Assembly (NCBI GenBank): GCA_013154305.1
Contig: JAADCT010000005.1
Span: forward strand, 1 to 48,234
Direction: 5' to 3'
Source: Aquificota bacterium
GTDB lineage: Bacteria > Aquificota > Aquificia > Aquificales > QOAS01
DNA: 48,234 nt
Shown: positions 12,963-40,418 of the stretch, one piece after another
Layout of the letters: every line of letters begins with the position of its first letter
How positions within the stretch are numbered: the first letter of the stretch is position 1
Notes under the pieces: model-generated
Databases searched by the model: none
Seen by the model: the letters and a program-made list of their open reading frames with translations, nothing else
What the model was told of the DNA's origin: nothing
Program-made: the position numbers and the translations under genes

Positions 12963-13694
12963 ATGGCAAACAACAAAGCGACTTATAATGAGCGGCTTTT
13001 TCAAAAAAGTAGGATTCGGCGCTTTTTACACCTCCAACGATACTTTTGGCTCAAAAAAGTTTACGAAAGTTTTGTCGGTAATAAACCGGCTAAAGTTTTG
13101 GAGCTGGGATGTTACGACGCAAAAACCTTAGAATTTATACCTAAACCGGAAAAGTATGTTTGTTTTGATGCCAATTGGGAGGGTGGTTTGGACCTGGCGA
13201 AGAAAAATTACGGAAGTCTAACCTATTGTTCTTTTTTTGAAAGCAACCATCCGGCGGACCTATCGTTAATCGAAGAAACCTTTGACGTCTTTATAAGTAT
13301 GGAAACTTTCGAGCACATAAAAACCTCCCTGGTAGAGGAATATTTAAAGCAAGTAACTTTGAAGTTAAAAAAAGGGGCTTGGATATTTATAACGGTTCCT
13401 AACGAAATCGGTTTGCCCTTATTAATTAAGTACGCGGCCAAGGCAGCGTTTAAGAAGTTCGGTAAAAGTTCCGATTTTGGTGCAGAAACCTATTCTTTTA
13501 AAGAATTGTATTACGGATTTTTGGGGAAAACCGAAAAGGTTAAAAGGGTTGAAGGAGGCCACAAAGGTTTTAACTGGAAAAACTTTCAAAACTTGCTAAC
13601 GAAGTACTTCGACTTAGTTAAGGTAGAGGGAATACCTTTTAGCCGATTTCCGTCTTTGTCTTTCCAAGTTGGTCTGGTTTTGAAAAATCGGTAG
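12963..13694 (+). CDS. Class I SAM-dependent methyltransferase (small-molecule/glycan type, not a DNA methyltransferase) with low-GC foreign composition
   Basis: Degenerate motif I VLELGCYDAKT, post-I acidic residue YVCFDAN, motif II FDVFISMETFEHI and motif III KKGAWIFITVPN. It has no (D/N)PP(Y/F) or PCQ motif. Hand-counted GC is about 37-38% over 12961-13080, against about 53-60% in the flanks. Confidence 0.75.
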   Translation: MANNKATYNERLFQKSRIRRFLHLQRYFWLKKVYESFVGNKPAKVLELGCYDAKTLEFIPKPEKYVCFDANWEGGLDLAKKNYGSLTYCSFFESNHPADLSLIEETFDVFISMETFEHIKTSLVEEYLKQVTLKLKKGAWIFITVPNEIGLPLLIKYAAKAAFKKFGKSSDFGAETYSFKELYYGFLGKTEKVKRVEGGHKGFNWKNFQNLLTKYFDLVKVEGIPFSRFPSLSFQVGLVLKNR

Positions 13695-13703
13695 GTGAAG
13701 TCT

Positions 13704-16442
13704 ATGAAAGGTTTAAACCTGATAAACAAGTGCGGTCTCGCCTTCGAGGTCGGTTTTAAGGAAAACTTCCTGAGGAGGGACCTCGGATACGAACCCGAAC
13801 GCGGTCTGGAGGAGTTTTTTTACCAAAAGGGGTTGGCCCTCGGCTACTACTTTCGCCTCTTTCGGCCGGGAGAACTTTCGGCCGGGGAAGTGGCCGACGA
13901 CCCGCGGACGGCGGTCGTCTGCTGCAACGACGAACGAAGGGTTCGCTTCGAGTTTGAGAGGGCCGACGTCCTTCTCTACCATCCCGCGGAAACCTATTTG
14001 GTCGAACTGACCACAACGCAGGACTTTTATCCGACGGCCAATCTTTTGGGACGAAAGCGCTTGGACAAAGGGCCGCGGGGCGTGGGTCTCGACCTTCCGG
14101 CCAAGGAGGAGGCCCTCTTTCAGATTTTGGACAAGATTTTGGAGCACGCGGCCCGCCTCCGCCTGAGCACCTACAAAACGAGGGCCGAATACCACAAGGT
14201 GGTCCAACTCTTTAAGTACTTCTTTTCCTTCGTGGACCACCTTTTGCGGGAGGAAAAACCCTTCCCCGAGTGGTTTAACCTCCTCGTCGTTTATCCCCTC
14301 AGCGGTCCCTACTTTTTGCGCTTCAGGGGGGAATTGATTAAAAACTACGCCCTCGGCAGGCGCGAGCGGTTGAGGGAGGCCGCCGGCGAGCTGGCGGAGA
14401 ACCTTTACGAGCTTCGGACGCGCGACGACTTTCTCTACGAGGTTTCCCCCCAAGAGGTCAGGGTTTTCGAACCGGAAACCTTCGAAAGCGGCCTCTCCGT
14501 AGAGGAACTCCGAAAGGTGGTAAGGGAGAAGGTTCTCTCCGCACCGCGGGGGGTCCTGAACTTTTTGGGTTACTCCATAGGGGCGGGAAAGACGACCGCC
14601 ATCGTCGAGAGGATAAAGAGGGAAGTTTCCTCCGGAAGGAGGGTTTTGGTCTTTTACTTTTCGCCGCTGAAGTTTTTGAACGAGAGCGTTCGAAAGAAGT
14701 TCGAATCGATAGACGGCGCGCTGGTGGTCGACGACTCGGCGGTCGAGAGTTTGCGGACGAAGCGGAGGCCGGGGCTCTTTTACGAGCGAAAGGACCACAC
14801 CGAAGTTCGAAAAACGGGAAAGCTGAAGGCCCTCCGACGCCTTCTCGAGGGGAAGGAGTGGAAAAATGCGCCGCTGACGGCCGTTTTGACGACGACCCAC
14901 TCGCTGCTGCCGACAAAGGGAAACACCTCTACCGCCCGCTGGCTTCGCGGCATTTTGGCCGAATTTTTCCGCGAGGGGGACTCGGTTTACTTCGTCTTCG
15001 ACGAGGTAGGCGGGAGCGAGAACTTCCTCGGCGCCCTCCACGAGGTTTTAGAACTTCCCGAAGTTTATCGAAACAGGGAAAGGATTTCCTTCTTTTTGCT
15101 GGACGCCAACATGCCGGTAAACGGTTTCCCCTACTGGTTTGAAAAGGGCAAGGAGGGCCGCTTCAACGTCGAAGGCTTTTTAACCGTAAAAGAGCACGAC
15201 GGAAGGGCCCTCTTTGAGGAGGGCTTTGAGGTCGAAACCCTGTCGGGAAAAAAGTACGGGGGCACCTTTTACGGGGGAACCGCCTTTCCCGCCCGCCGTT
15301 TGGTCGTGAAGGGGAGAATTTACCCGCCGGCGCGGGAGCGGGAGGACCTCCTTCACCGGGTGGTCGAATACCTCGAAGGGGAACTGAGGAGGTTCGAGGA
15401 CGGTCTGGCGGTCTACATTCAGGACAAGAGGCTCATTCCCCTTTTGGCGGAGCACTTTGAAAAACGGGGCGTAAAGGTGGCGATGGTTACAAGGGAGGTC
15501 CGAAAGACCAACCCCTCGGCCCGGTTGGTGTTTTTCACTTCGGCGGGGGCCCGCGGCGTCGACGTTCCCAAGCGAAAGATTGCGGTCTTTTTGAACACCC
15601 TGAACCCGAGCCTCGAGCTTTTAAACGCCGTTCAGGCCGTCGGACGCATCCGCGGCCTTGAAAACGAAGGCAACCTCGACAAGGAGGTCGAACTAATCTT
15701 TGCCGGAACCGACCCGGGGGAGGAACCCTTCGTCTACTACGCCCTGGCCGAAAACCTCCTGAACCTGACGAAGAAACTCGTCTCCTACCAGGTTTCCCTA
15801 AAGGACCGCCGGGAGGTATACCTACTCTTTCCTCCCCAAAGTTGGAAAGAGTACGGGGGCTTTACCCTTTACGAGCTTCTCGCGCGGCTGCGCTCCCTGG
15901 TGGGTTTGAAAATTCCCGAGCTGCGACCTTTGGAGGAGGTTTTGGTCCCGCTTCTGGAGGACCTGCGACCGAGGGTCGTCTCGGTCCGAAGGACGAAGGA
16001 GGAACTCTTCCTCTTTCCCTACTACTGTTTTAAGGCGCGGCTGACCGTTTTGGTAAAGGTTCCGCGGAAACGGCTTTCGGTCTTTTTGGAGGAGGTGGAC
16101 CGGCTTTTGGAAACGCCCGAACTTTCGGCCTCCTTCAAGGCCGAGCTGGCCGAGCTGGCCGAACACCTGACGGAGCTAAAGGGCGGGGAGAACGAGTTCG
16201 TCGGTTATTCGGCCCTCTGGCTGGGCGAAACTCCCCCGCTCTTAGAAAAACCCTTTAAGGATTACCGGCTCCTTTTGAAGGGGGAAAGGGTTCGCGTCGA
16301 GCGCTTTTTCGAAGAGCGGCTGGGAATGAGGGGCCTCGAGTGCACCGTGGCGGTCGAAAACGCCCTCCTTTTGCCCCTGGCGGAGGTCTCGCTGGTTTCC
16401 AAACTTCCCCTGCCGAAGGTACCCTTATACTTGGTGGGCTGA
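13704..16442 (+). CDS. SF2 (DExH-like) helicase/translocase-family ATPase with uncharacterised N-terminal (about 280 aa) and C-terminal (about 250 aa) domains
   Basis: The full SF2 motif set is in the expected order:
- motif I GYSIGAGKTT (GAGKTT at nt 14580-14597);
- motif Ic-like AVLTTTHSLL;
- motif II FVFDEVGG (DEVGG at nt 15000-15014);
- motif III-like FFLLDANMP;
- motif V LVFFTSAGARGVDVP;
- motif VI QAVGRIRG (nt 15633-15656).
I prefer the ATG at 13704, which has AGGTGA 5 nt upstream. The ORF track starts at the GTG at 13695. Confidence 0.7.
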   Translation: MKGLNLINKCGLAFEVGFKENFLRRDLGYEPERGLEEFFYQKGLALGYYFRLFRPGELSAGEVADDPRTAVVCCNDERRVRFEFERADVLLYHPAETYLVELTTTQDFYPTANLLGRKRLDKGPRGVGLDLPAKEEALFQILDKILEHAARLRLSTYKTRAEYHKVVQLFKYFFSFVDHLLREEKPFPEWFNLLVVYPLSGPYFLRFRGELIKNYALGRRERLREAAGELAENLYELRTRDDFLYEVSPQEVRVFEPETFESGLSVEELRKVVREKVLSAPRGVLNFLGYSIGAGKTTAIVERIKREVSSGRRVLVFYFSPLKFLNESVRKKFESIDGALVVDDSAVESLRTKRRPGLFYERKDHTEVRKTGKLKALRRLLEGKEWKNAPLTAVLTTTHSLLPTKGNTSTARWLRGILAEFFREGDSVYFVFDEVGGSENFLGALHEVLELPEVYRNRERISFFLLDANMPVNGFPYWFEKGKEGRFNVEGFLTVKEHDGRALFEEGFEVETLSGKKYGGTFYGGTAFPARRLVVKGRIYPPAREREDLLHRVVEYLEGELRRFEDGLAVYIQDKRLIPLLAEHFEKRGVKVAMVTREVRKTNPSARLVFFTSAGARGVDVPKRKIAVFLNTLNPSLELLNAVQAVGRIRGLENEGNLDKEVELIFAGTDPGEEPFVYYALAENLLNLTKKLVSYQVSLKDRREVYLLFPPQSWKEYGGFTLYELLARLRSLVGLKIPELRPLEEVLVPLLEDLRPRVVSVRRTKEELFLFPYYCFKARLTVLVKVPRKRLSVFLEEVDRLLETPELSASFKAELAELAEHLTELKGGENEFVGYSALWLGETPPLLEKPFKDYRLLLKGERVRVERFFEERLGMRGLECTVAVENALLLPLAEVSLVSKLPLPKVPLYLVG

Positions 16443-16446
16443 GGCA

Positions 16447-18819
16447 ATGCTCGAGCTTCTGGGACGGCTGTTTGAGGGCCCGGCTCCGAAGCTGGCCTCC
16501 AAAAGTTGCGAGGAGTTCCGAGTCGAAACCTCCGAGAGGCTCGACCTTTTTTTCAACCTTCCCGGACTCGGGGAGGAGTTCGCCTGTCCGAAACTGGGAC
16601 AAATTTTAAAGACCTTCGCCGAGAGGAAGGCCACCCTTTTGAGACTGGCGCAGCTGGCGGTGGTCCGAAACGACCAGAGGCTCTGGAATTTCGTCGGAAA
16701 GGCCGTTGACCGCTTCGTCGAGGGGCTCGAAGGGTTGGAGGTTCCGCCCTTGGAAAAGCTTCCGCCCCCGGAGCGGGTAAAAAAACCCGAAACGGGCCTG
16801 AGCGAGCTTCCGGTGGACAAAAGGCCCTTTAGGTTGGTTTCGCTCAAGAGGGGGCGGGGCAAGGAGCTCGAACTGGCAAAGGTTTGCTTCGAAAGAAAGG
16901 GCGGGGGTCCCGACGTCTCGGCCGAGGACCGCCGGCGCCTTCTCGACCTTTTGGAGGAGCTGGTGGATTTGCTCCCCCTTTCGGAAAAGGAAATGGGTCT
17001 CCTCAAAAGGGTTTTGGAGGTTTTCAAACGCTACTCGGAAGGTCCGGCCGACTCGACCCTGCCGCGGGGGGCCTTCAGGTCCTACCTTCTGCAGCACTTT
17101 TTTCCCTTTAAGCTGGAGGCGGCAATCCGCGCCGACGGGCGGCTGGTTTGCTTTCGCTTTGCCCGCCGCCTCGGGGAAAAACCGCCCTCCGACCGAAAGG
17201 TTCTGAAAGAGTGGGCGACCGAACTTCTGGCCTCCTGGAGGGAGGGAAAGGACGACTGCCACGACGAGCGGGGGGCCGCGGGCGGCTCCATCGAAAAGAG
17301 GCTTCCGCTTAAGGTCGTCTTTTTCCGGGCCCTCAAGCGCTACCTTCTGGCGCGGCTGGAGGCGGACTATTACGGCATCCGCTGCCTAAAGAATAAAGAC
17401 CTGCTGAAGGCGTTGGCCGGGGAGCTGGAGCGGCTTTTGGAGTCGCCGCTTTTTGCCGAGCTGGCCGAGGAGTTTTTCAGGCTGGCGGCGGCCAACGTCG
17501 TCTTTTACCGCTTTTACGAGGTTCTAAGGAGGGAGGTTCCCGAAAGGGGCGGCGAGGTCGGCTTTGAGGCGGGCGTTTACTCCTACGACGAGAGGCGGCC
17601 GCCGACTTTTATAAAAGACCTCCGGGTGGTGGGGGAGGTTTCCTCCTTTGCGGTGGTTTTGAGCGTCGGCGGCGGGGCCAACGAGCTGCGGCCGCTGATT
17701 TCAAAGCTGCAGGACGAGCTTCGGCGGCGGTTGGGGAAAAAGGTGACCTTTACCAATTGGAATCTGGACTTGGTTTTGGGCAAGGGTCCGCCGGCGGCCA
17801 AGATTTTAAGGCTCTTTCTCTTCGGCGAGGCTTTGGGCCGCTTGGGCGTTCCCGTCTTCGTGGCCTATCCCGAAAGGAGGAGGGCAAACAGGTACTACGA
17901 CCTAACGGAGGTTTTGAAGTTTTTTACCCACAAGCAGTTTTTAACGCTTTCGGCCCTGGAGAGGTTTGAGGGGGGCGCCGGCCGCCTGGTGGTGGAAAAC
18001 GCCCTCTCTTCTCTCCTCAAGGGGGTAAGGAGCGTTTCGGCCACCGTCGGCGTTCCCTATCCCTTCGCCAAACCGCTGGAGGTGGGCCTGCTTTTGACCG
18101 AGCAGTTTAACTCCGCCTTTTCCCCGGAGGAGCTGCGCGAGCTGGGTCTGCAGGGACAGGGACACTTTTTCGGCGGCGGGAGGCTTTTTAAGGTTTCCTT
18201 TTCTCCCGCCGAAGGCGGGCTTTTGAACCTGAGGATAGAACTTTTGGGCCGATACTTCTTCCTTCCGCTGATTTTCGGCGGCGGGCTGAAGGTGGTGGCA
18301 GGCCCGGACGCCGCCATCGGGGCCGACCACCTGCTCCACGTGACGCAGTTTTCGGACGAGGAGGTCAACGCGGCGGTCGAAAACGGCGTTACCCAATTTT
18401 TGGACTGGAGGCCCGTTTACCGCTCGAGGGGTTTCTTTGCAGCCGAGGTTCCCCTTTGGGTTCTGAAGAGGAGAAACAACCGCGTGAAGTTTGCCGAGGG
18501 TTTCGAACTGGGATTGGTGGAGGGGGAGGGAAACGAGTACGCCTTCGTCACCCTGCCGGCCTCGAGGGAGCAAACGGGTGCCAACGCCTTCGTCGTCCGC
18601 TTTAGGGACCTTTCCGAAACCGACCGCCTCGTTTTGAAGTATTCGATGCTGGCCTTGGGCCTCTTTAGCTCCGACGCGGTTGCCGGCTACGAGTACACGC
18701 GGCCGAAGTCGGAAAGGGAACACCTTTATTCGAAAAAGTTTTGGCTGAAGGTGGGAAAGAGGGAGTTTCTGTTTTACTACCTGAACGCGGTTTGCGACTA
18801 CATGGTTGCGGCCTACTAA
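16447..18819 (+). CDS. Hypothetical 790-aa protein with no recognisable domain, coupled to the upstream SF2 ATPase
   Basis: The ORF is long, uninterrupted and has host-like codon usage. Its ATG lies 4 nt after the upstream stop (tga ggca ATG). I find no P-loop, TM segment, Cys cluster or nuclease motif by eye. Confidence 0.6.
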   Translation: MLELLGRLFEGPAPKLASKSCEEFRVETSERLDLFFNLPGLGEEFACPKLGQILKTFAERKATLLRLAQLAVVRNDQRLWNFVGKAVDRFVEGLEGLEVPPLEKLPPPERVKKPETGLSELPVDKRPFRLVSLKRGRGKELELAKVCFERKGGGPDVSAEDRRRLLDLLEELVDLLPLSEKEMGLLKRVLEVFKRYSEGPADSTLPRGAFRSYLLQHFFPFKLEAAIRADGRLVCFRFARRLGEKPPSDRKVLKEWATELLASWREGKDDCHDERGAAGGSIEKRLPLKVVFFRALKRYLLARLEADYYGIRCLKNKDLLKALAGELERLLESPLFAELAEEFFRLAAANVVFYRFYEVLRREVPERGGEVGFEAGVYSYDERRPPTFIKDLRVVGEVSSFAVVLSVGGGANELRPLISKLQDELRRRLGKKVTFTNWNLDLVLGKGPPAAKILRLFLFGEALGRLGVPVFVAYPERRRANRYYDLTEVLKFFTHKQFLTLSALERFEGGAGRLVVENALSSLLKGVRSVSATVGVPYPFAKPLEVGLLLTEQFNSAFSPEELRELGLQGQGHFFGGGRLFKVSFSPAEGGLLNLRIELLGRYFFLPLIFGGGLKVVAGPDAAIGADHLLHVTQFSDEEVNAAVENGVTQFLDWRPVYRSRGFFAAEVPLWVLKRRNNRVKFAEGFELGLVEGEGNEYAFVTLPASREQTGANAFVVRFRDLSETDRLVLKYSMLALGLFSSDAVAGYEYTRPKSEREHLYSKKFWLKVGKREFLFYYLNAVCDYMVAAY

Positions 18820-18830
18820 TTGGTAGAGGG

Positions 18831-19667
18831 ATGGACAAACTGGTGCAAACGGCCGACGGAAGCCCCACCCTTTGGAGCGGCGAGTTCGGGGAGAGCTACC
18901 ACAGCGTCAGCGCCGGGGCCTTGGAGGAGGCCCTGAAAAAGTTTTTGCTGCCGTCGCACCTGCCCTTTTTGGTTCGGGAAAGGGACGGCGTTTCCCTCCT
19001 CGAGGTGGGTTTCGGGCTGGGCTACAACCTGACGGTGACGGCCGTCGAACTTTTAAAGGTCAATCCATCGGTTCGCGTCCGGTATTGGGGTCTGGAGCGG
19101 TCGCTGAGTCCCCTCCTTTGGGAGCTGCGCCTTCCTCCCCCTTACGGGGAGTTTTACGAACTTCTCAAGGAAAACCTGAAAAGGGGAAAAGAGCGCTTTC
19201 GAATCGGACCGGTGGAGGTGAACCTCCTTTTCGGCGACGCCCGCAGGGAGGTCGTAAGGGTGGAGGAGACCGTCGACGCGGTCTACCACGACGCCTTTTC
19301 CCCCAAGAGGAACGCCGAGCTTTGGACGCTCCAGTTTTTGGAAAAGCTTAAGGAGCGGTTGAGGCCCGAGGGATTTTGGGTCAGCTACTCGGCCGCCCTG
19401 CCCGTAAGGAGGGCGCTGGCCGTTTTGGGGTTTGAGGTCTTTAGCACCGAACCGGTGGGTCGGCGCTCGCCGGGAACGGCGGCAACCCTGCGGGGGCGGG
19501 CGGTTTGCGAAAGGGTTCGCCCCCTCTCGGAAAAAGAGAGGAGGAAACTGGAAACCTCCCCGAGGGCGGTTCCGCTGGAGGACCCCTGTCTGTGCCTGCC
19601 GAGGGAGGTAATTTGGGAAAACTACCTCAGGAGGGTTTCGGAGCGGGAAGGGAAACCCCTAGGGTAA
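18831..19667 (+). CDS. mnmC: Stand-alone MnmC2-type (DUF752) SAM-dependent tRNA methyltransferase
   Basis: MDKLVQTADGSPTLWSGEFGESYHSVSGALEE...LLEVGFGLGYN...VDAVYHDAFSPKRNAELWT matches the methyltransferase half of MnmC. There is no FAD oxidoreductase half. I chose the ATG at 18831, which has GAGG upstream. Confidence 0.8.
   Translation: MDKLVQTADGSPTLWSGEFGESYHSVSAGALEEALKKFLLPSHLPFLVRERDGVSLLEVGFGLGYNLTVTAVELLKVNPSVRVRYWGLERSLSPLLWELRLPPPYGEFYELLKENLKRGKERFRIGPVEVNLLFGDARREVVRVEETVDAVYHDAFSPKRNAELWTLQFLEKLKERLRPEGFWVSYSAALPVRRALAVLGFEVFSTEPVGRRSPGTAATLRGRAVCERVRPLSEKERRKLETSPRAVPLEDPCLCLPREVIWENYLRRVSEREGKPLG

Positions 19668-28521: not shown

Positions 28522-28525
<4 letters not shown>
27395..28525 (+). 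CDS. Efflux RND periplasmic adaptor (membrane fusion protein, HlyD family)
   Basis: N-terminal anchor, lipoyl-like GDSFRAGDLLAVVDP, a coiled-coil hairpin (LEAAEAKLEALKAAAQ...) and APYDGRVVKLYAREGSFV. The real start may be the ATG at 27404. Confidence 0.85.
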
Positions 28526-29760
<1,235 letters not shown>

Positions 29761-33998: not shown

Positions 33999-35027
33999 AT
34001 GGTGGTGAGGCAAAGAAAGGTTTGGGACGCGGCGACGCTTTACAGCCGCCACAAGGAGGGGCAGGTGGTCAGCCCCGACTTTCAGAGGGGAAGCGTTTGG
34101 AACCGAACTAAAAAGTCGGAGGCGATATACTCGCTTTTAACTATAGGTTTGCCCGAAATAACCCTTTTGGAGGCCGAGGACGGAACCTACCGCATCCTCG
34201 ACGGTCTCCAGCGGGTAAGTTCGATTATCCAATTTCTCGACAACGAGTACGCGATTAAGCTCGACCCCACCCTGACGCACCTCGACGGGCAATTGGCCGA
34301 AGAACTGGAGGGAAAACGCTTTAGGGACCTTCCCGAACACCTGCAAAACCGGATAAGGAACGCCGAACTCGGCGTCGTCGTTTACTCGGGCGTTTCCGAC
34401 TTCGACGTGGCGAGGGAAATCTTCACCCGGCTTAACTACAAGCCGACGCCCCTGAACGAGGCCGAACTCCTCTACGCGCTAACCTTCTCGGGCGAAAAGT
34501 CGAAGCTCCTGGCCGAGGTCGGAAGGGAGGTCTCCAAAAGGAGGATGTTGGGCTTTGCCCTCCTTTCGAGGGGTCTGGCCGCCCTTTCGGTCGCCCGCGA
34601 TTGGACCGAGGGGGACCTCAACCCCGAGGAGGAATTCAAGTTTTCCAAGTTTTACGACTGGCTCTTTAAAAGGACCAAGAAGTTTCTCTCCGAGTGGGAC
34701 GAGGAAACGCTGGCGCGCCGCGCCGCCGACCTCAAGGTGCTCCACCAAAGCCTGAAGACCGAGGTCGGGATAGACGCCGTTAAAAGTTCCTATTGGTGGG
34801 ACTTTTTGGGCTACGCCCTCTACGAGGCCGAGAAAAAGGCCGTTCCCGCCGAGGAGTACGGCGTCGAGCTTCTCCCGCAAAGGGTGAAGGAGCTCTCTTC
34901 CCTCCCCGCCTGGAGGGAAAACGTTTCCCAAAGGAACCGCCAAAAGCCCAAGGTTCTCGCGGAGCGCTTTCGAATACTGACCGACTTTTTTAAAAGGTTC
35001 CTGGTCCCCGCGGAGCGGGGCTCCTAA
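33999..35027 (+). CDS. DUF262 (ParB/Srx-fold, DGQQR-type) domain protein without a recognisable nuclease partner domain
   Basis: SPDFQRGSVWNRTKKSEAIYSLLTIGLPEITLLEAEDGTYRILDGLQRVSSIIQFL matches the DUF262 N-terminal pattern (FQR..VW ... DGqQR). I cannot assign the C-terminal roughly 200 aa. Confidence 0.72.
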   Translation: MVVRQRKVWDAATLYSRHKEGQVVSPDFQRGSVWNRTKKSEAIYSLLTIGLPEITLLEAEDGTYRILDGLQRVSSIIQFLDNEYAIKLDPTLTHLDGQLAEELEGKRFRDLPEHLQNRIRNAELGVVVYSGVSDFDVAREIFTRLNYKPTPLNEAELLYALTFSGEKSKLLAEVGREVSKRRMLGFALLSRGLAALSVARDWTEGDLNPEEEFKFSKFYDWLFKRTKKFLSEWDEETLARRAADLKVLHQSLKTEVGIDAVKSSYWWDFLGYALYEAEKKAVPAEEYGVELLPQRVKELSSLPAWRENVSQRNRQKPKVLAERFRILTDFFKRFLVPAERGS

Positions 35028-37778: not shown

Positions 37779-40418
37779 CTACTCGAGGTCGAGAACAAAC
37801 GGGTCTATAACGAAAAGTTTTTTGCCGGTGAAAACGAGAGCGTCGGTTCCCGGCAGCTTAAAGACTTCGCCGTAAGTAAAAACGGGCCTGAACCTTCCCA
37901 ATTCCTTCGGATTTTTCGGGTCCGACAGGTCCCAAAGCTCCCAAAAGTAACCCGCATAGGGGTGGTAGTCGGCCAGAACCATTTTCCCGTTGGCGGTCAG
38001 AAAAACGTCCGGCCCATCATGGGTAACGAAAGTGCTCAAAAACCTCGGCCTGAGGGGGTCGGAAACGTCCAAAATAATTCCTTCGTTGTAAGATACGGCC
38101 GCCAAAAGGCCGCCGGGGCCGACGTCGAAGGAGTCCACCGAAAAGCTTTCGACGTTGAAGGGAACGCTTTCGGCGGCTTCGCACCCGCAAAGGCAACCGT
38201 CCCCGGTTTTTAAAACTTTCTCCCCTTTTTGGACCGACAGCTTCCTTTTAAGAAGCTCCAAGAGGTCGCCCGCAACCTTTACCGACGAAGGGTCGGCGGT
38301 CTCCAGCACCAACAGCTTTTCGTCCACCGCTAAAAACGCGTGGGCGCCGTCGGGGGTAAACTTCGGTCCTTCGACCTCGGTTGCGTTTTCAAAGCGCAAA
38401 GTTTTAAACTCGGCGGGGAGACCCCTTTCGTTTAAACCGATTGAGCGGACGAAAACGGCACCTTCCGTCTCGACCAGAACCAGGGCAAAGTTTTTTTCGT
38501 AGTTTGCCCGGAGGGCGACCACTTTTCCTTCGGAAAACCGGAGGATGCCCAGCGGCCGGAGGGCCTTCGGGTCGGCGGCGTCGTAAACGGCCACCGCGTT
38601 CCCGTTTTTAACGAAAAGCAAGCCCTTGGAAGCCGCCAGCTCAAAGAACTTCCTACCGCCGAAGGCGGTAATCGGCGCTCTTGCGACCGGCTGGAGGGAA
38701 AAGTCGGGTCCGACCTCGTAGACCTTTAAGAGGAGGTTTCCTTCTTCCTCCTCAACTGCGAAAAAGAGATTTCTGCGAGCGTCCAAAGTGTCGCCGTAGT
38801 CGTAGAGGTAAACCGCCCTGACCGCGTGAGGCGTAGAAACGCCCGTAAAGGCCGCCTCCACGGAACCCGGGAAGCTCACCAAAAAGGCCAAGTTTCCTTC
38901 GTGTGAGAATTCGGCCCCGTAGTAATCCCACAAAAGGTCGACGAAAAGTTCCGTTTCCTCCCCGACGCGGAGCAAATTACCGGAGGAGTAAATCAGGTCG
39001 GGGGAACTTTCTATCGGTTTTAAGGGAACGCCGGCAAAGGCGCGTTTGAGGAGCTTCGGCCGGAGCGGGTCGGAGGCGTCGAAAATTCCCAACGCCCCGG
39101 CGTCGGTGCCGGCGTAAAGTCGCCTCCCGTCCGGAGAAAAGACGAGGGAAATGACGGCCCCCTCCAGCGGCAACTTCAACCGTTTTACCGGTTTGAGCGT
39201 TTGGGCGTCGACCGCCAAAAGTTCCTCGCTGCCGTTAATCAGGTAAGCGTATCGGCCGTCCTTGGATAGGACCACCTCGTCGGCCCGTATTGCCTTAACG
39301 AACTTAAACTCCTTATTCTTAAATTCGTAAACGAGGACGCCCGATTCGTCGGCCTCAAGGTAAAGCCTTCCCCTGACGGGGTCGAAGGTTCCGCCCAGTT
39401 GGTAGAGCACGCCCTCGTCGTAAGTGAAGTTAAAGCGAAGAGCGCCGAGCGGCTTCGGATTGGTCGGGTCGGAAACGTCGAGCGCGTAAACCAGGTCCTC
39501 GCGCAATTTTTTATCCCATTCCCAGGTGCAGGAATTTCTCAAAAAGACGAGCCTGCCGTCGGGTGAAGAAACGATAAAGCTGGCGGAGTTGTAATGGCAT
39601 TCGCCCGTTTCGGGGTCCAGCGCCGGCGGTTGCCACGAGGACAAAAGGGACAGACTTCCGTTGCGGCTGTATTCGTAGACGAGAAACTCGTAGCCGAAGG
39701 CAAAAAGTAAGGGTTTTCCGGGCACCTTTTTAATGGTGCCGAAAACGCCACCGGCCCGGCCCACCTCTCCGAGTTTAAAGGGACCGCGGTCGAGAATTTC
39801 GCCCTCCAAAACCTTTTCCAAAACCCTCTCGTAAGCGGGCGGAACGCCGCTTTTGAGCTTTTCCCGGTCGCGACGCGCGTCGAAAGTGAGGGCGTCCTTC
39901 AGGTCCACTTTACCGTCGCCGTCGACGTCGTCGAGCCACCGGCCGAGGAGCCAATTACTTTCTTTTTCAAACCTCTCGGGGTCAAAACCGTACTTTACCA
40001 ACTTGGCGGTGCCCTCGAAGAGAAGCTCCGTCAGGGGCGACACCCTTACTTCCCCCTTCAGGTCCCTAACCGTTTTTCCCCACGCGAAGGCGTGGAAGGT
40101 GCCTTTTATCCTCCTGCAGTAGTTTTCGCCGGAGGGATTGCGATAACAACCGCCCTCGACCGCGTAAAGGTAAAGTTTTGAGGGCCGAAGTTCCTCCGCG
40201 TGGGGGTCAAAGCGGCCGAGGAACCCGGGAAGGTCCCCCGTTTTTTCGACCCACCGCAGGAGCAAGCCGCCGTTTTCCGAAACCTCGTAAATCTTTACCG
40301 TGGCGTTGGCAACGCCGGGAACCTCGGCCGGCGGAAGGGCGGACGGAAGCCGAACCCCCAGCGAGAAGACGCCCAATCCCAAAAGGGCGAAAAACGCCCC
40401 GATTGCCCAACCGGTCAT
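37779..40418 (-). CDS. Large secreted or anchored LVIVD-repeat beta-propeller protein
   Basis: N-terminal hydrophobic signal or anchor, followed by six spaced D(V/A/L)SDP..(N/R)PK..G-type motifs: ALDVSDPTNPKPLG, IFDASDPLRPKLL, VYDAADPKALRPLG, LETADPSSVKVAG, ILDVSDPLRPRFLS and LWDLSDPKNPKELG. It also has a D-x-D-x-DG loop (DDVDGDGKVDLKD). Confidence 0.72.
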   Translation of the reverse strand: MTGWAIGAFFALLGLGVFSLGVRLPSALPPAEVPGVANATVKIYEVSENGGLLLRWVEKTGDLPGFLGRFDPHAEELRPSKLYLYAVEGGCYRNPSGENYCRRIKGTFHAFAWGKTVRDLKGEVRVSPLTELLFEGTAKLVKYGFDPERFEKESNWLLGRWLDDVDGDGKVDLKDALTFDARRDREKLKSGVPPAYERVLEKVLEGEILDRGPFKLGEVGRAGGVFGTIKKVPGKPLLFAFGYEFLVYEYSRNGSLSLLSSWQPPALDPETGECHYNSASFIVSSPDGRLVFLRNSCTWEWDKKLREDLVYALDVSDPTNPKPLGALRFNFTYDEGVLYQLGGTFDPVRGRLYLEADESGVLVYEFKNKEFKFVKAIRADEVVLSKDGRYAYLINGSEELLAVDAQTLKPVKRLKLPLEGAVISLVFSPDGRRLYAGTDAGALGIFDASDPLRPKLLKRAFAGVPLKPIESSPDLIYSSGNLLRVGEETELFVDLLWDYYGAEFSHEGNLAFLVSFPGSVEAAFTGVSTPHAVRAVYLYDYGDTLDARRNLFFAVEEEEGNLLLKVYEVGPDFSLQPVARAPITAFGGRKFFELAASKGLLFVKNGNAVAVYDAADPKALRPLGILRFSEGKVVALRANYEKNFALVLVETEGAVFVRSIGLNERGLPAEFKTLRFENATEVEGPKFTPDGAHAFLAVDEKLLVLETADPSSVKVAGDLLELLKRKLSVQKGEKVLKTGDGCLCGCEAAESVPFNVESFSVDSFDVGPGGLLAAVSYNEGIILDVSDPLRPRFLSTFVTHDGPDVFLTANGKMVLADYHPYAGYFWELWDLSDPKNPKELGRFRPVFTYGEVFKLPGTDALVFTGKKLFVIDPFVLDLE

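Follow-up and report, generated by a model that had tools for sequence, protein, structure and literature searches.

A predicted helicase gene and its orphan partner gene in an uncultured hot-spring Aquificota bacterium: a candidate nucleic-acid surveillance module

Large superfamily 2 (SF2) motors that carry accessory domains, are accompanied by a dedicated partner and have a patchy distribution are known from several defence systems, namely Hachiman (HamA nuclease and HamB SF2 helicase), DISARM (DrmA/B/C), Druantia (DruE), Mokosh (MkoA) and Zorya (ZorD). HsdR, Res and Cas3 are composed of an N-terminal accessory domain, RecA1, RecA2 and a C-terminal domain, in this order. The present analysis concerns two adjacent genes of an uncultured hot-spring Aquificota bacterium, found on a stretch of 48,234 nucleotides (nt) (contig JAADCT010000005.1, positions 1 to 48,234; hereafter, the window). 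Gene 1 is predicted to encode a divergent SF2-type motor, while gene 2 encodes an orphan protein of 790 amino acids (aa). The pair belongs to no named system among those tested, and gene 1 is a remote variant within a known kind, that of an SF2 helicase with a dedicated partner. The reading favoured here, tentatively and at somewhat less than even confidence, is that the pair constitutes a self-contained accessory module of helicase and partner of the defence or surveillance type. It is therefore presented as a candidate, and not a demonstrated, new nucleic-acid surveillance module.

The likeness of the pair to Hachiman, DISARM, Druantia, Mokosh and Zorya lies in the large SF2 motor beside a dedicated partner and in the patchy distribution. 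No PADLOC model of these systems, however, matches either protein at E <= 1, and neither protein has a PADLOC or Pfam match to the HamA-type DUF1837 at the same threshold. With respect to DISARM, Druantia and Mokosh, no DUF1998, PLD, DNA methyltransferase or MkoA/DruE-type match was obtained, and gene 2 lacks a Cys cluster; in contrast to the helicase defence systems, the partner here is a protein of 790 aa with no recognisable nuclease. Gene 1 has the same domain order as HsdR, Res and Cas3, with which it also shares a Walker B of DExx type and a motif VI of the form QxxGRxxR. Nevertheless, no ResIII, HsdR or N6_Mtase match was found and there is no HsdM/HsdS or Mod at the pair, which separates it from restriction-modification systems of types I and III, whereas the absence of HD and cas3_core matches, and of cas genes or a repeat array in the window, separates it from Cas3 and CRISPR-Cas. 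An earlier note on this DNA, made from the sequence alone, had stated that the hallmark partners of the named helicase defence systems are missing, and no PADLOC or Pfam model of these systems was matched. A search of the literature on defence systems of Aquificota found nothing relevant.

Both genes are real coding genes under constraint. The two open reading frames (ORFs) proposed in the earlier note were confirmed in the sequence together with their coordinates (Table 1), and gene 2 does start 4 nt past the stop codon of gene 1. The length of about 915 aa given there for gene 1 is correct for the ORF that reaches back to GTG 13695 (13695-16442), but ATG 13704 is the likelier start and yields a protein of 912 aa: the sequence AGGTGA (13692-13697) is found 6 nt upstream, the source contig's own gene call begins at 13704, and the alignment to the homologue from the second lineage (see below) begins at residue 8, near this ATG. 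The purine-rich stretch of gene 2 that resembles a ribosome-binding site sits within the 3' end of gene 1, which suggests translational coupling; no terminator-like site was found between the two genes.

One further lineage of the pair was identified. Homologues of gene 1 (P0001/P0004; 52-53% amino-acid identity) and of gene 2 (P0003; 39-42%), both aligned over approximately the full length, are carried by the metagenome contigs L001 and L002, whose DNA is 98.6% identical and which are thus considered to represent one second lineage, not two. On both contigs, the gene 2 homologue is found directly after the gene 1 homologue, in the same order as in the window; in L002, 12 nt separate the two. 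Different genes flank the pair: in L001, QueF, an ABC-3 permease and HupH are located upstream and a ThiD-like gene downstream of it, while YjbQ and a methyltransferase are located upstream and MnmC2, an aminotransferase and LptB downstream of it in the window. Since adjacency and order are kept among different neighbours, the conserved unit is the pair. The description of the two genes as a coupled, conserved pair is thereby borne out in the only other lineage, where the homologue of gene 2 stands next to the helicase and its reading frame is conserved, and the pair was placed in no characterised complex among those tested.

The window contig (Ga0072504_120620; 63,229 bp, of which the window covers positions 1-48,234) and L001 (Ga0072504_120493) originate from the same JGI sample (3300005095), and both known lineages of the pair accordingly co-occur in one community. 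In tetranucleotide composition, the L001 flanks correlate with the window at 0.73-0.80, compared with 0.87-0.98 within the window and 0.2-0.56 against other metagenome-assembled genomes (MAGs) of Aquificota. The possibility that L001 and the window belong to one genome and that the two pairs are paralogues was rejected based on these values (0.73-0.80 versus at least 0.87 within the window), which indicates that L001 comes from a different but related organism. The ThiD-like gene gave no taxonomic placement for L001, as its best genome match was 41-42% identical.

The comparison of L001 with L002 revealed 11 synonymous and 4 non-synonymous differing codons in gene 1 (771 codons), and, over the initial 219 codons of gene 2, 14 synonymous and 8 non-synonymous ones. 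Compared with L002, L001 carries an 8-nt deletion (L001:4917) that frameshifts the gene 1 homologue, which loses its last ~60 residues, and opens a 187-nt gap ahead of the gene 2 homologue; it represents either strain-level inactivation or an assembly error. The frameshift of gene 1 in one strain suggests that the module is dispensable. Both this frameshift and the extremely narrow distribution described below would also be expected if the pair were left over from a former mobile element, decaying or functionless and kept by chance. Such an origin is, however, highly improbable, given that neither frame is interrupted in the window, nor gene 1 in L002, that 39-53% identity over the full length is accompanied by invariant catalytic motifs, that synonymous changes outnumber non-synonymous ones between the strains, and that the composition of the genes has fully converged on that of the host. 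As a separate observation, differences between L001 and L002 are about 5 times denser in the initial 219 codons of gene 2 than in gene 1, and a 26-nt segment of the gene 2 homologue (L001:5504-5529) contains nine substitutions; a recombination tract, a patch of hypervariability or an assembly of mixed strains could account for these dense differences.

The pair is extremely rare and is known from two organisms. Among ~15 billion proteins, each of the two proteins has one other lineage. The word-index search of 5.8 billion clusters returned one other cluster per protein, and no further members were recovered in it with the gene 1 profile. The gene 2 profile, used in an exhaustive HMMER search over 1.84 billion representatives, found only gene 2 and P0003, in agreement with the orphan status assigned to this protein in the earlier note; gene 2 is a protein family from two lineages. 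Pattern scans with tblastn confirmation detected no copy of either gene in 185,579 GTDB species genomes, and none in IMG/VR. The nearest species genomes are Aquificota MAGs, in which the aminotransferase is 85% identical and the aminotransferase-LptB pair is kept. In these genomes, the stretch of 7-10 kb examined on the upstream side of the shared aminotransferase contains neither gene, and no synteny with the window was observed there, hence no insertion site can be defined.

Gene 1 is classified as an SF2-type motor whose set of catalytic motifs is intact and which belongs to a distinct clade lacking characterised members. SF2 motifs I, Ia, II, III, IV, V and VI are all present in order and are invariant in the homologues, and each of the gene 1 motifs quoted in the earlier note was recovered by translation (Table 1). 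The predicted secondary structure is beta-alpha-beta in both halves of the core, and a beta-rich insert of ~70 aa separates the two RecA-like domains. Searches against Pfam, NCBIfam, PADLOC and PHROGs gave nothing significant (the best match was Helicase_C, E = 0.18), and no match to PDB sequences was obtained in either single-sequence or profile searches. The AlphaFold2 model of gene 1, computed from a 2-sequence alignment, is poor (mean predicted local distance difference test score (pLDDT), 41.9) because only two sequences are available. Even so, Foldseek searches with this model (3Di string) matched 201 PDB chains at E <= 1e-3 and, among the matches listed, 50 out of 50 were SF2 helicases or remodellers, including Mtr4, SNF2h, Hel308, RecQ, Ski2, NS3 and DEAD-box proteins. 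The TM-scores of these matches are low (0.1-0.26) owing to the poor model, so that the fold class is supported and nothing finer. At the sequence level, the link between gene 1 and the PDB is transitive and runs through a related family (see below), whose RecA2 domain matches the C-domains of the DEAD-box proteins SrmB (E 2.4e-5) and Mss116. The ordered motifs, the Foldseek matches and the hhalign match to this related family all agree with the assignment of gene 1 to the SF2 motors that had been made previously.

The N-terminal domain of gene 1 shows 57% identity to the second lineage over residues 93-285 and is modelled with pLDDT <40. Its comparison with the N-domain of the related family revealed four colinear weak matches (FEVGF, QKG..G..F, (R)AD...(D/E)L(S/T) and K..Q..xY; shuffle p ~0.03, 0.009), while no significant similarity was found between the C-domain of gene 1 and the C-region of the family. 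The layout of N-domain, RecA1, RecA2 and C-domain resembles that of nuclease-helicase fusions, which brings in the explanation that the pair is a clade-specific helicase-nuclease of DNA repair or recombination, with the N-domain of gene 1 as a degenerate PD-(D/E)xK-type nuclease and gene 2 as a RecC/AddB-like, non-catalytic partner. The conserved D-x12-E-L-T block of the N-domain, which has a similar counterpart, AD...(D/E)L(S/T), in the related family, and the large size of a partner that has no recognisable motifs are consistent with this proposal. On the other hand, the N-domain is devoid of the canonical lysine of PD-(D/E)xK, no nuclease family matches at E <= 1, the N-domain similarity to the related family is not statistically secure, and the rarity of the pair argues against a repair factor in the same way as against a housekeeping RNA-processing complex (see below). 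A repair role is thus distinctly unlikely, and the PD-(D/E)xK-like nuclease reading of the N-domain is an inference only.

Gene 2 encodes 7 Cys and 7 His residues, which are scattered along the protein, and its maximum KD19 is 1.46. The sequence scan revealed no P-loop, CxxC, HxH or transmembrane-like segment, in accordance with the earlier description of this protein as lacking a P-loop, transmembrane segments and Cys or His clusters. The best-conserved blocks are YPxRRxxNRxYDxTxVLKFFTHKQFLT, FFGGGRLFKV..PAEGG..RYFFLP and the final 90 residues. No significant match was found in Pfam, NCBIfam, PADLOC or PHROGs, and no relative was found among PDB sequences (single and profile searches) or among plasmids and phages (tblastn); gene 2 also shows no similarity to gene 1 or to the 879-aa orphan encoded elsewhere in the window (37779-40418). 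The AlphaFold2 model, which was likewise computed from a 2-sequence alignment (pLDDT 38.6), predicts an alpha-helical N-half and an alpha/beta C-half; in the latter, a Rossmann-like segment precedes, in this order, a three-strand meander, a helix and more strands. Foldseek searches with this model against PDB and BFVD gave nothing at E <= 1e-3, and the model is too poor to be of use for gene 2.

Eight of the top 30 Foldseek matches of gene 2 in PDB are Argonaute/PIWI proteins of A. fulgidus and T. thermophilus (AfAgo, TtAgo), with non-significant E-values of 0.2-0.5 and probability <=0.69. A guide-dependent system, in which the helicase would cooperate with gene 2 as a cryptic MID-PIWI (Argonaute-like) protein, would find a parallel in the triad of restriction endonuclease (REase), helicase and pPIWI-RE, whose gene order is strictly conserved (Burroughs et al. 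2013, PMC3702460). The window pair is similar to this triad in its order (a possible nuclease-like module, helicase and large partner), close termini and patchy distribution (PMC3702460), and the predicted order of elements in the C-half of gene 2 is compatible with such a domain. However, the helicase of the triad is DinG-like, while gene 1 is devoid of the Cys-rich Fe-S insert that defines DinG, and unrelated alpha/beta folds score equally with the low-confidence model of gene 2. Furthermore, gene 2 has no Pfam match at E <= 1 (a result that extends to the Piwi and pPIWI_RE models only if the library includes them), and its hhalign comparison with TtAgo gave a probability of 0.2%. The Argonaute lead is thus supported by neither hhalign nor Pfam, and a guide-dependent system is kept as a very unlikely reading.

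The plasmid tblastn search with gene 1 yielded weak matches to a cyanobacterial 'helicase-related protein', which belongs to a family of helicase-related ATPases of 1000-1330 aa (loci L083, L143-L176; e.g., L083:2752-9458 and L145:4100-12713). The homology of the SF2-like cores was established with hhalign, in which residues 275-666 of gene 1 matched the family at 98.6% (E 7e-16) with 4 sequences and at 98.9% (E 1.6e-17) with 31 sequences; moreover, the gene 1 profile matches nearly all family helicases of the locus set (31 ORFs, E 2e-14 to 2e-6). The columns GxGKT, YxSP, DExxG, DA, PA, QD, T..RG..P and Q...RxRG are invariant in gene 1 and the family, which share them as GxGKT, YxSP, DExxG, DA(S/N), YPA, (I/A)QDK, TSxxARGxxxP and QxxxRxRG, and throughout the wider family the Walker A, the Walker B and the arginine-rich motif VI do not vary. 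The description of the pair as orphans thus stands for gene 2, whereas gene 1 is not wholly isolated, its core being a remote member of a widespread, uncharacterised helicase-related family.

In 30 out of 33 loci, an orphan partner of ~1000 aa is encoded immediately ahead of the family helicase on the same strand, and the two genes overlap or are <=300 nt apart in most of these loci. Such tight pairing of a helicase with a large domain-less protein is also what is seen in the window. The cassette is found in Nostocales and other cyanobacteria, in Ktedonobacteria, and on plasmids of Acinetobacter, Acetobacter and Cupriavidus; examples include WP_011316674/WP_011316675 of Trichormus variabilis ATCC 29413 plasmid C and WP_180047513/WP_180047514 of Acinetobacter piscicola pYH12207-1. 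Six plasmid copies reside on conjugative plasmids. The partner family has no match in Pfam, PADLOC or PDB, the cassette is not in PADLOC 2.0 and its Pfam domains are limited to P-loop and Helicase_C, and no publication carrying the cassette accession numbers was found. The census of 148 flanking ORFs identified no conserved third gene; the neighbours are mixed, comprising housekeeping genes as well as genes of mobile or defence type, namely Uma2, nSTAND1, an integrase, HNH, WYL, Tiamat-like ATPases, HmaB/C, PD-T4-6 and a REase. In its behaviour, the cassette resembles an accessory module that is autonomous, and it looks like an uncatalogued candidate defence system. In Acinetobacter, it is trailed by an HNH nuclease and a WYL regulator.

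The window pair differs from this cassette in several respects. Gene 1 is shorter than the cassette helicases by 90-400 aa, and a methyltransferase and YjbQ are located upstream of it instead of a ~1000-aa partner of the family type. The cassette is often plasmid-borne, whereas the window pair is chromosomal and lies among housekeeping genes. In addition, gene 2 has no similarity to the flanks of the related helicases.

It is proposed that the two genes would be co-translated as a self-contained accessory module, in which gene 1 would act as an ATP-driven SF2-type translocase or helicase whose N- and C-terminal domains are specific to the lineage, with gene 2 as a dedicated partner supplying target sensing, effector activity, or both. 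The module may be a compact, very divergent offshoot of the widespread two-gene cassette of ~1000-aa partner and helicase-related ATPase, copies of which move among the plasmids and chromosomes found in cyanobacteria, Ktedonobacteria and proteobacteria. Movement of this kind is typical of defence and surveillance systems, and the defence or surveillance reading of the window pair is based on it, as well as on the conservation of the unit in different contexts, the extreme rarity of the pair, the lack of a copy in the examined stretch of the nearest genomes and the frameshift in one strain. We infer from these data that the two proteins form a physical complex, that its substrate is nucleic acid, and that its role is in defence or surveillance.

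Several results weigh against the defence or surveillance reading. No nuclease, effector or sensor domain was identified in gene 1 or gene 2, the PADLOC scan of the pair returned nothing, and no integrase, toxin-antitoxin or other defence genes were found beside the pair, which sits in a housekeeping run. The gene order of the related cassette (partner first, then helicase) is reversed in the window, gene 2 is not detectably related to the partner family of the cassette (hhalign, 0.06-0.2%; hmmsearch, nothing), and plain housekeeping genes occur among the cassette neighbours as well. Only two lineages are known and both come from one metagenome sample, which means that the patchiness may partly reflect under-sampling of a high-GC Aquificota clade; scans of JGI metagenome contigs were empty too, although this is a weak negative, as known contigs, including L001, were also missed. 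Finally, the GC content, the GC content of third codon positions (GC3) and the codon usage of both genes are within the range of the flanking housekeeping genes. The host-like composition reported in the earlier note is accordingly correct, but its conclusion that the pair is long resident is not established, since no copy is found by the shared neighbour gene in the closest genomes and none in the species genomes searched. A bolder version of the proposal, according to which the pair is a mechanistically new, thermophile-restricted surveillance system with gene 2 as an undescribed family and possibly a new fold or effector type, and forms, together with the related cassette, a new class of two-gene helicase defence modules that present defence catalogues lack, is rather doubtful.

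The main rival to the defence or surveillance reading comes from the genomic context. The pair is part of a co-directional run comprising IF-2, MiaA, TruD, LpxK, MurJ, Hfq, pyrC, YjbQ, the pair itself, MnmC2, the aminotransferase, LptB and a rhomboid protease. In each of the two lineages, a tRNA-modification gene of the same direction lies tightly beside the pair (MnmC2 for the window, QueF for L001; Table 1), which may be a coincidence or a hint of an RNA-related role. Accordingly, the pair could be a lineage-specific housekeeping complex of RNA remodelling or processing (e.g., tRNA or rRNA maturation at high temperature), in which gene 1 would unwind or remodel RNA and gene 2 would serve as an RNA-binding or scaffold protein. 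TruD and MiaA, located a few kb upstream in the window, the host-like composition with no mobility genes nearby, and the fact that the nearest PDB sequence relatives of the RecA2 domain of the wider family are DEAD-box RNA helicases all point in this direction. However, the tRNA-gene neighbourhood is a post hoc observation at two loci, and related Aquificota should also possess a factor of the housekeeping kind, yet none was found in 185,579 species genomes. The frameshift of gene 1 in one strain, the conjugative plasmids on which the relatives of gene 1 ride, and the canonical DEAD-box helicase that is already encoded in the window likewise argue against such a complex, making it an unlikely explanation.

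If the pair functions as proposed, it would represent a new helicase-based immunity or surveillance module from Aquificota, a phylum with almost unexplored phage-host biology, and a source of heat-stable proteins; if it is a lineage-specific RNA-processing factor, it would be of local interest only. Following gene 1 also exposed the widespread, uncatalogued cassette of partner and helicase (33 loci), a more tractable by-product that is testable in E. coli or Acinetobacter. Both gene 2 and the cassette partner are large conserved proteins without detectable homology, among which new folds and activities tend to emerge.

Table 1. Coordinates of the gene pair, its domains and motifs, and of neighbouring features (window positions unless a contig is named).
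Feature	Position	Strand	Remarks
Gene 1	13704-16442	+	912 aa from ATG 13704; predicted divergent SF2-type ATPase/helicase
Gene 2	16447-18819	+	790 aa; orphan partner protein, starts at ATG 16447
Gene junction GGTGGGCTGAGGCAATG	16433-16449	+	stop TGA 16440-16442, 4-nt spacer, ATG 16447
Gene 1 N-terminal domain (~270 aa)	13704-14516	+	holds conserved FERAD-x12-VELTxTQDF and HKVVQLFKYFFS
Gene 1 SF2 core, two RecA-like domains (predicted)	14517-15710	+	motifs, Foldseek, hhalign
Walker A GAGKTT	14580-14597	+	translated motif, gene 1
TTTHSLL	14889-14909	+	translated motif, gene 1
Walker B DEVGG	15000-15014	+	translated motif, gene 1
LLDAN	15096-15110	+	translated motif, gene 1
VYIQDK	15411-15428	+	translated motif, gene 1
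FTSAGARGVDVP	15534-15569	+	translated motif, gene 1
QAVGRIRG	15633-15656	+	translated motif, gene 1
Gene 1 C-terminal domain (~245 aa)	15711-16442	+	mixed alpha/beta; 46-47% identity to second lineage
Class I S-adenosylmethionine (SAM)-dependent methyltransferase, 243 aa	12963-13694	+	GC 38.5%, GC3 42%, versus ~58% and ~75% around
MnmC2	18831-19667	+	tRNA-modification gene, starts 11 nt past gene 2
QueF	L001:1909-2337		tRNA-modification gene, co-directional, ends 18 nt ahead of gene 1 homologue
Canonical DEAD-box helicase	28522-29760		in the window
~340-aa protein	33999-35027	+	sole recorded Pfam match GmrSD_N (DUF262); no recognised DUF1524 nuclease half
Second large orphan, 879 aa	37779-40418	-	no Pfam family; between chorismate synthase and a PHP-domain gene

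The methyltransferase gene is wedged between YjbQ and gene 1 with gaps of 0-9 nt, and is called shorter in the source contig (168 aa from 13188). Its product matches generic class I models alone (Methyltransf_23/25/11), with no match to DNA-methyltransferase models, and is 40% identical to a methyltransferase of a Caballeronia plasmid that is encoded beside a YdcF gene, in a non-defence context. Based on its foreign composition, its absence beside the pair in L001, the generic nature of its likeness to the methyltransferase of the Acinetobacter locus (E 0.012) and the non-defence plasmid context, the methyltransferase was rejected as a part of the module; it is probably an independent recent insertion. 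The statement of the earlier note that there is no DNA methyltransferase at the locus is right in that none was matched, but this abutting AT-rich class I methyltransferase gene, which lies outside the module, had been overlooked.

Apart from the absence of a CRISPR array and cas genes mentioned above, no tandem or spaced repeats were found in the window, and the Rfam search identified just a tRNA. GmrSD_N, the domain matched by the ~340-aa protein listed in Table 1, makes up the N-terminal half in modification-dependent restriction enzymes of the GmrSD type.

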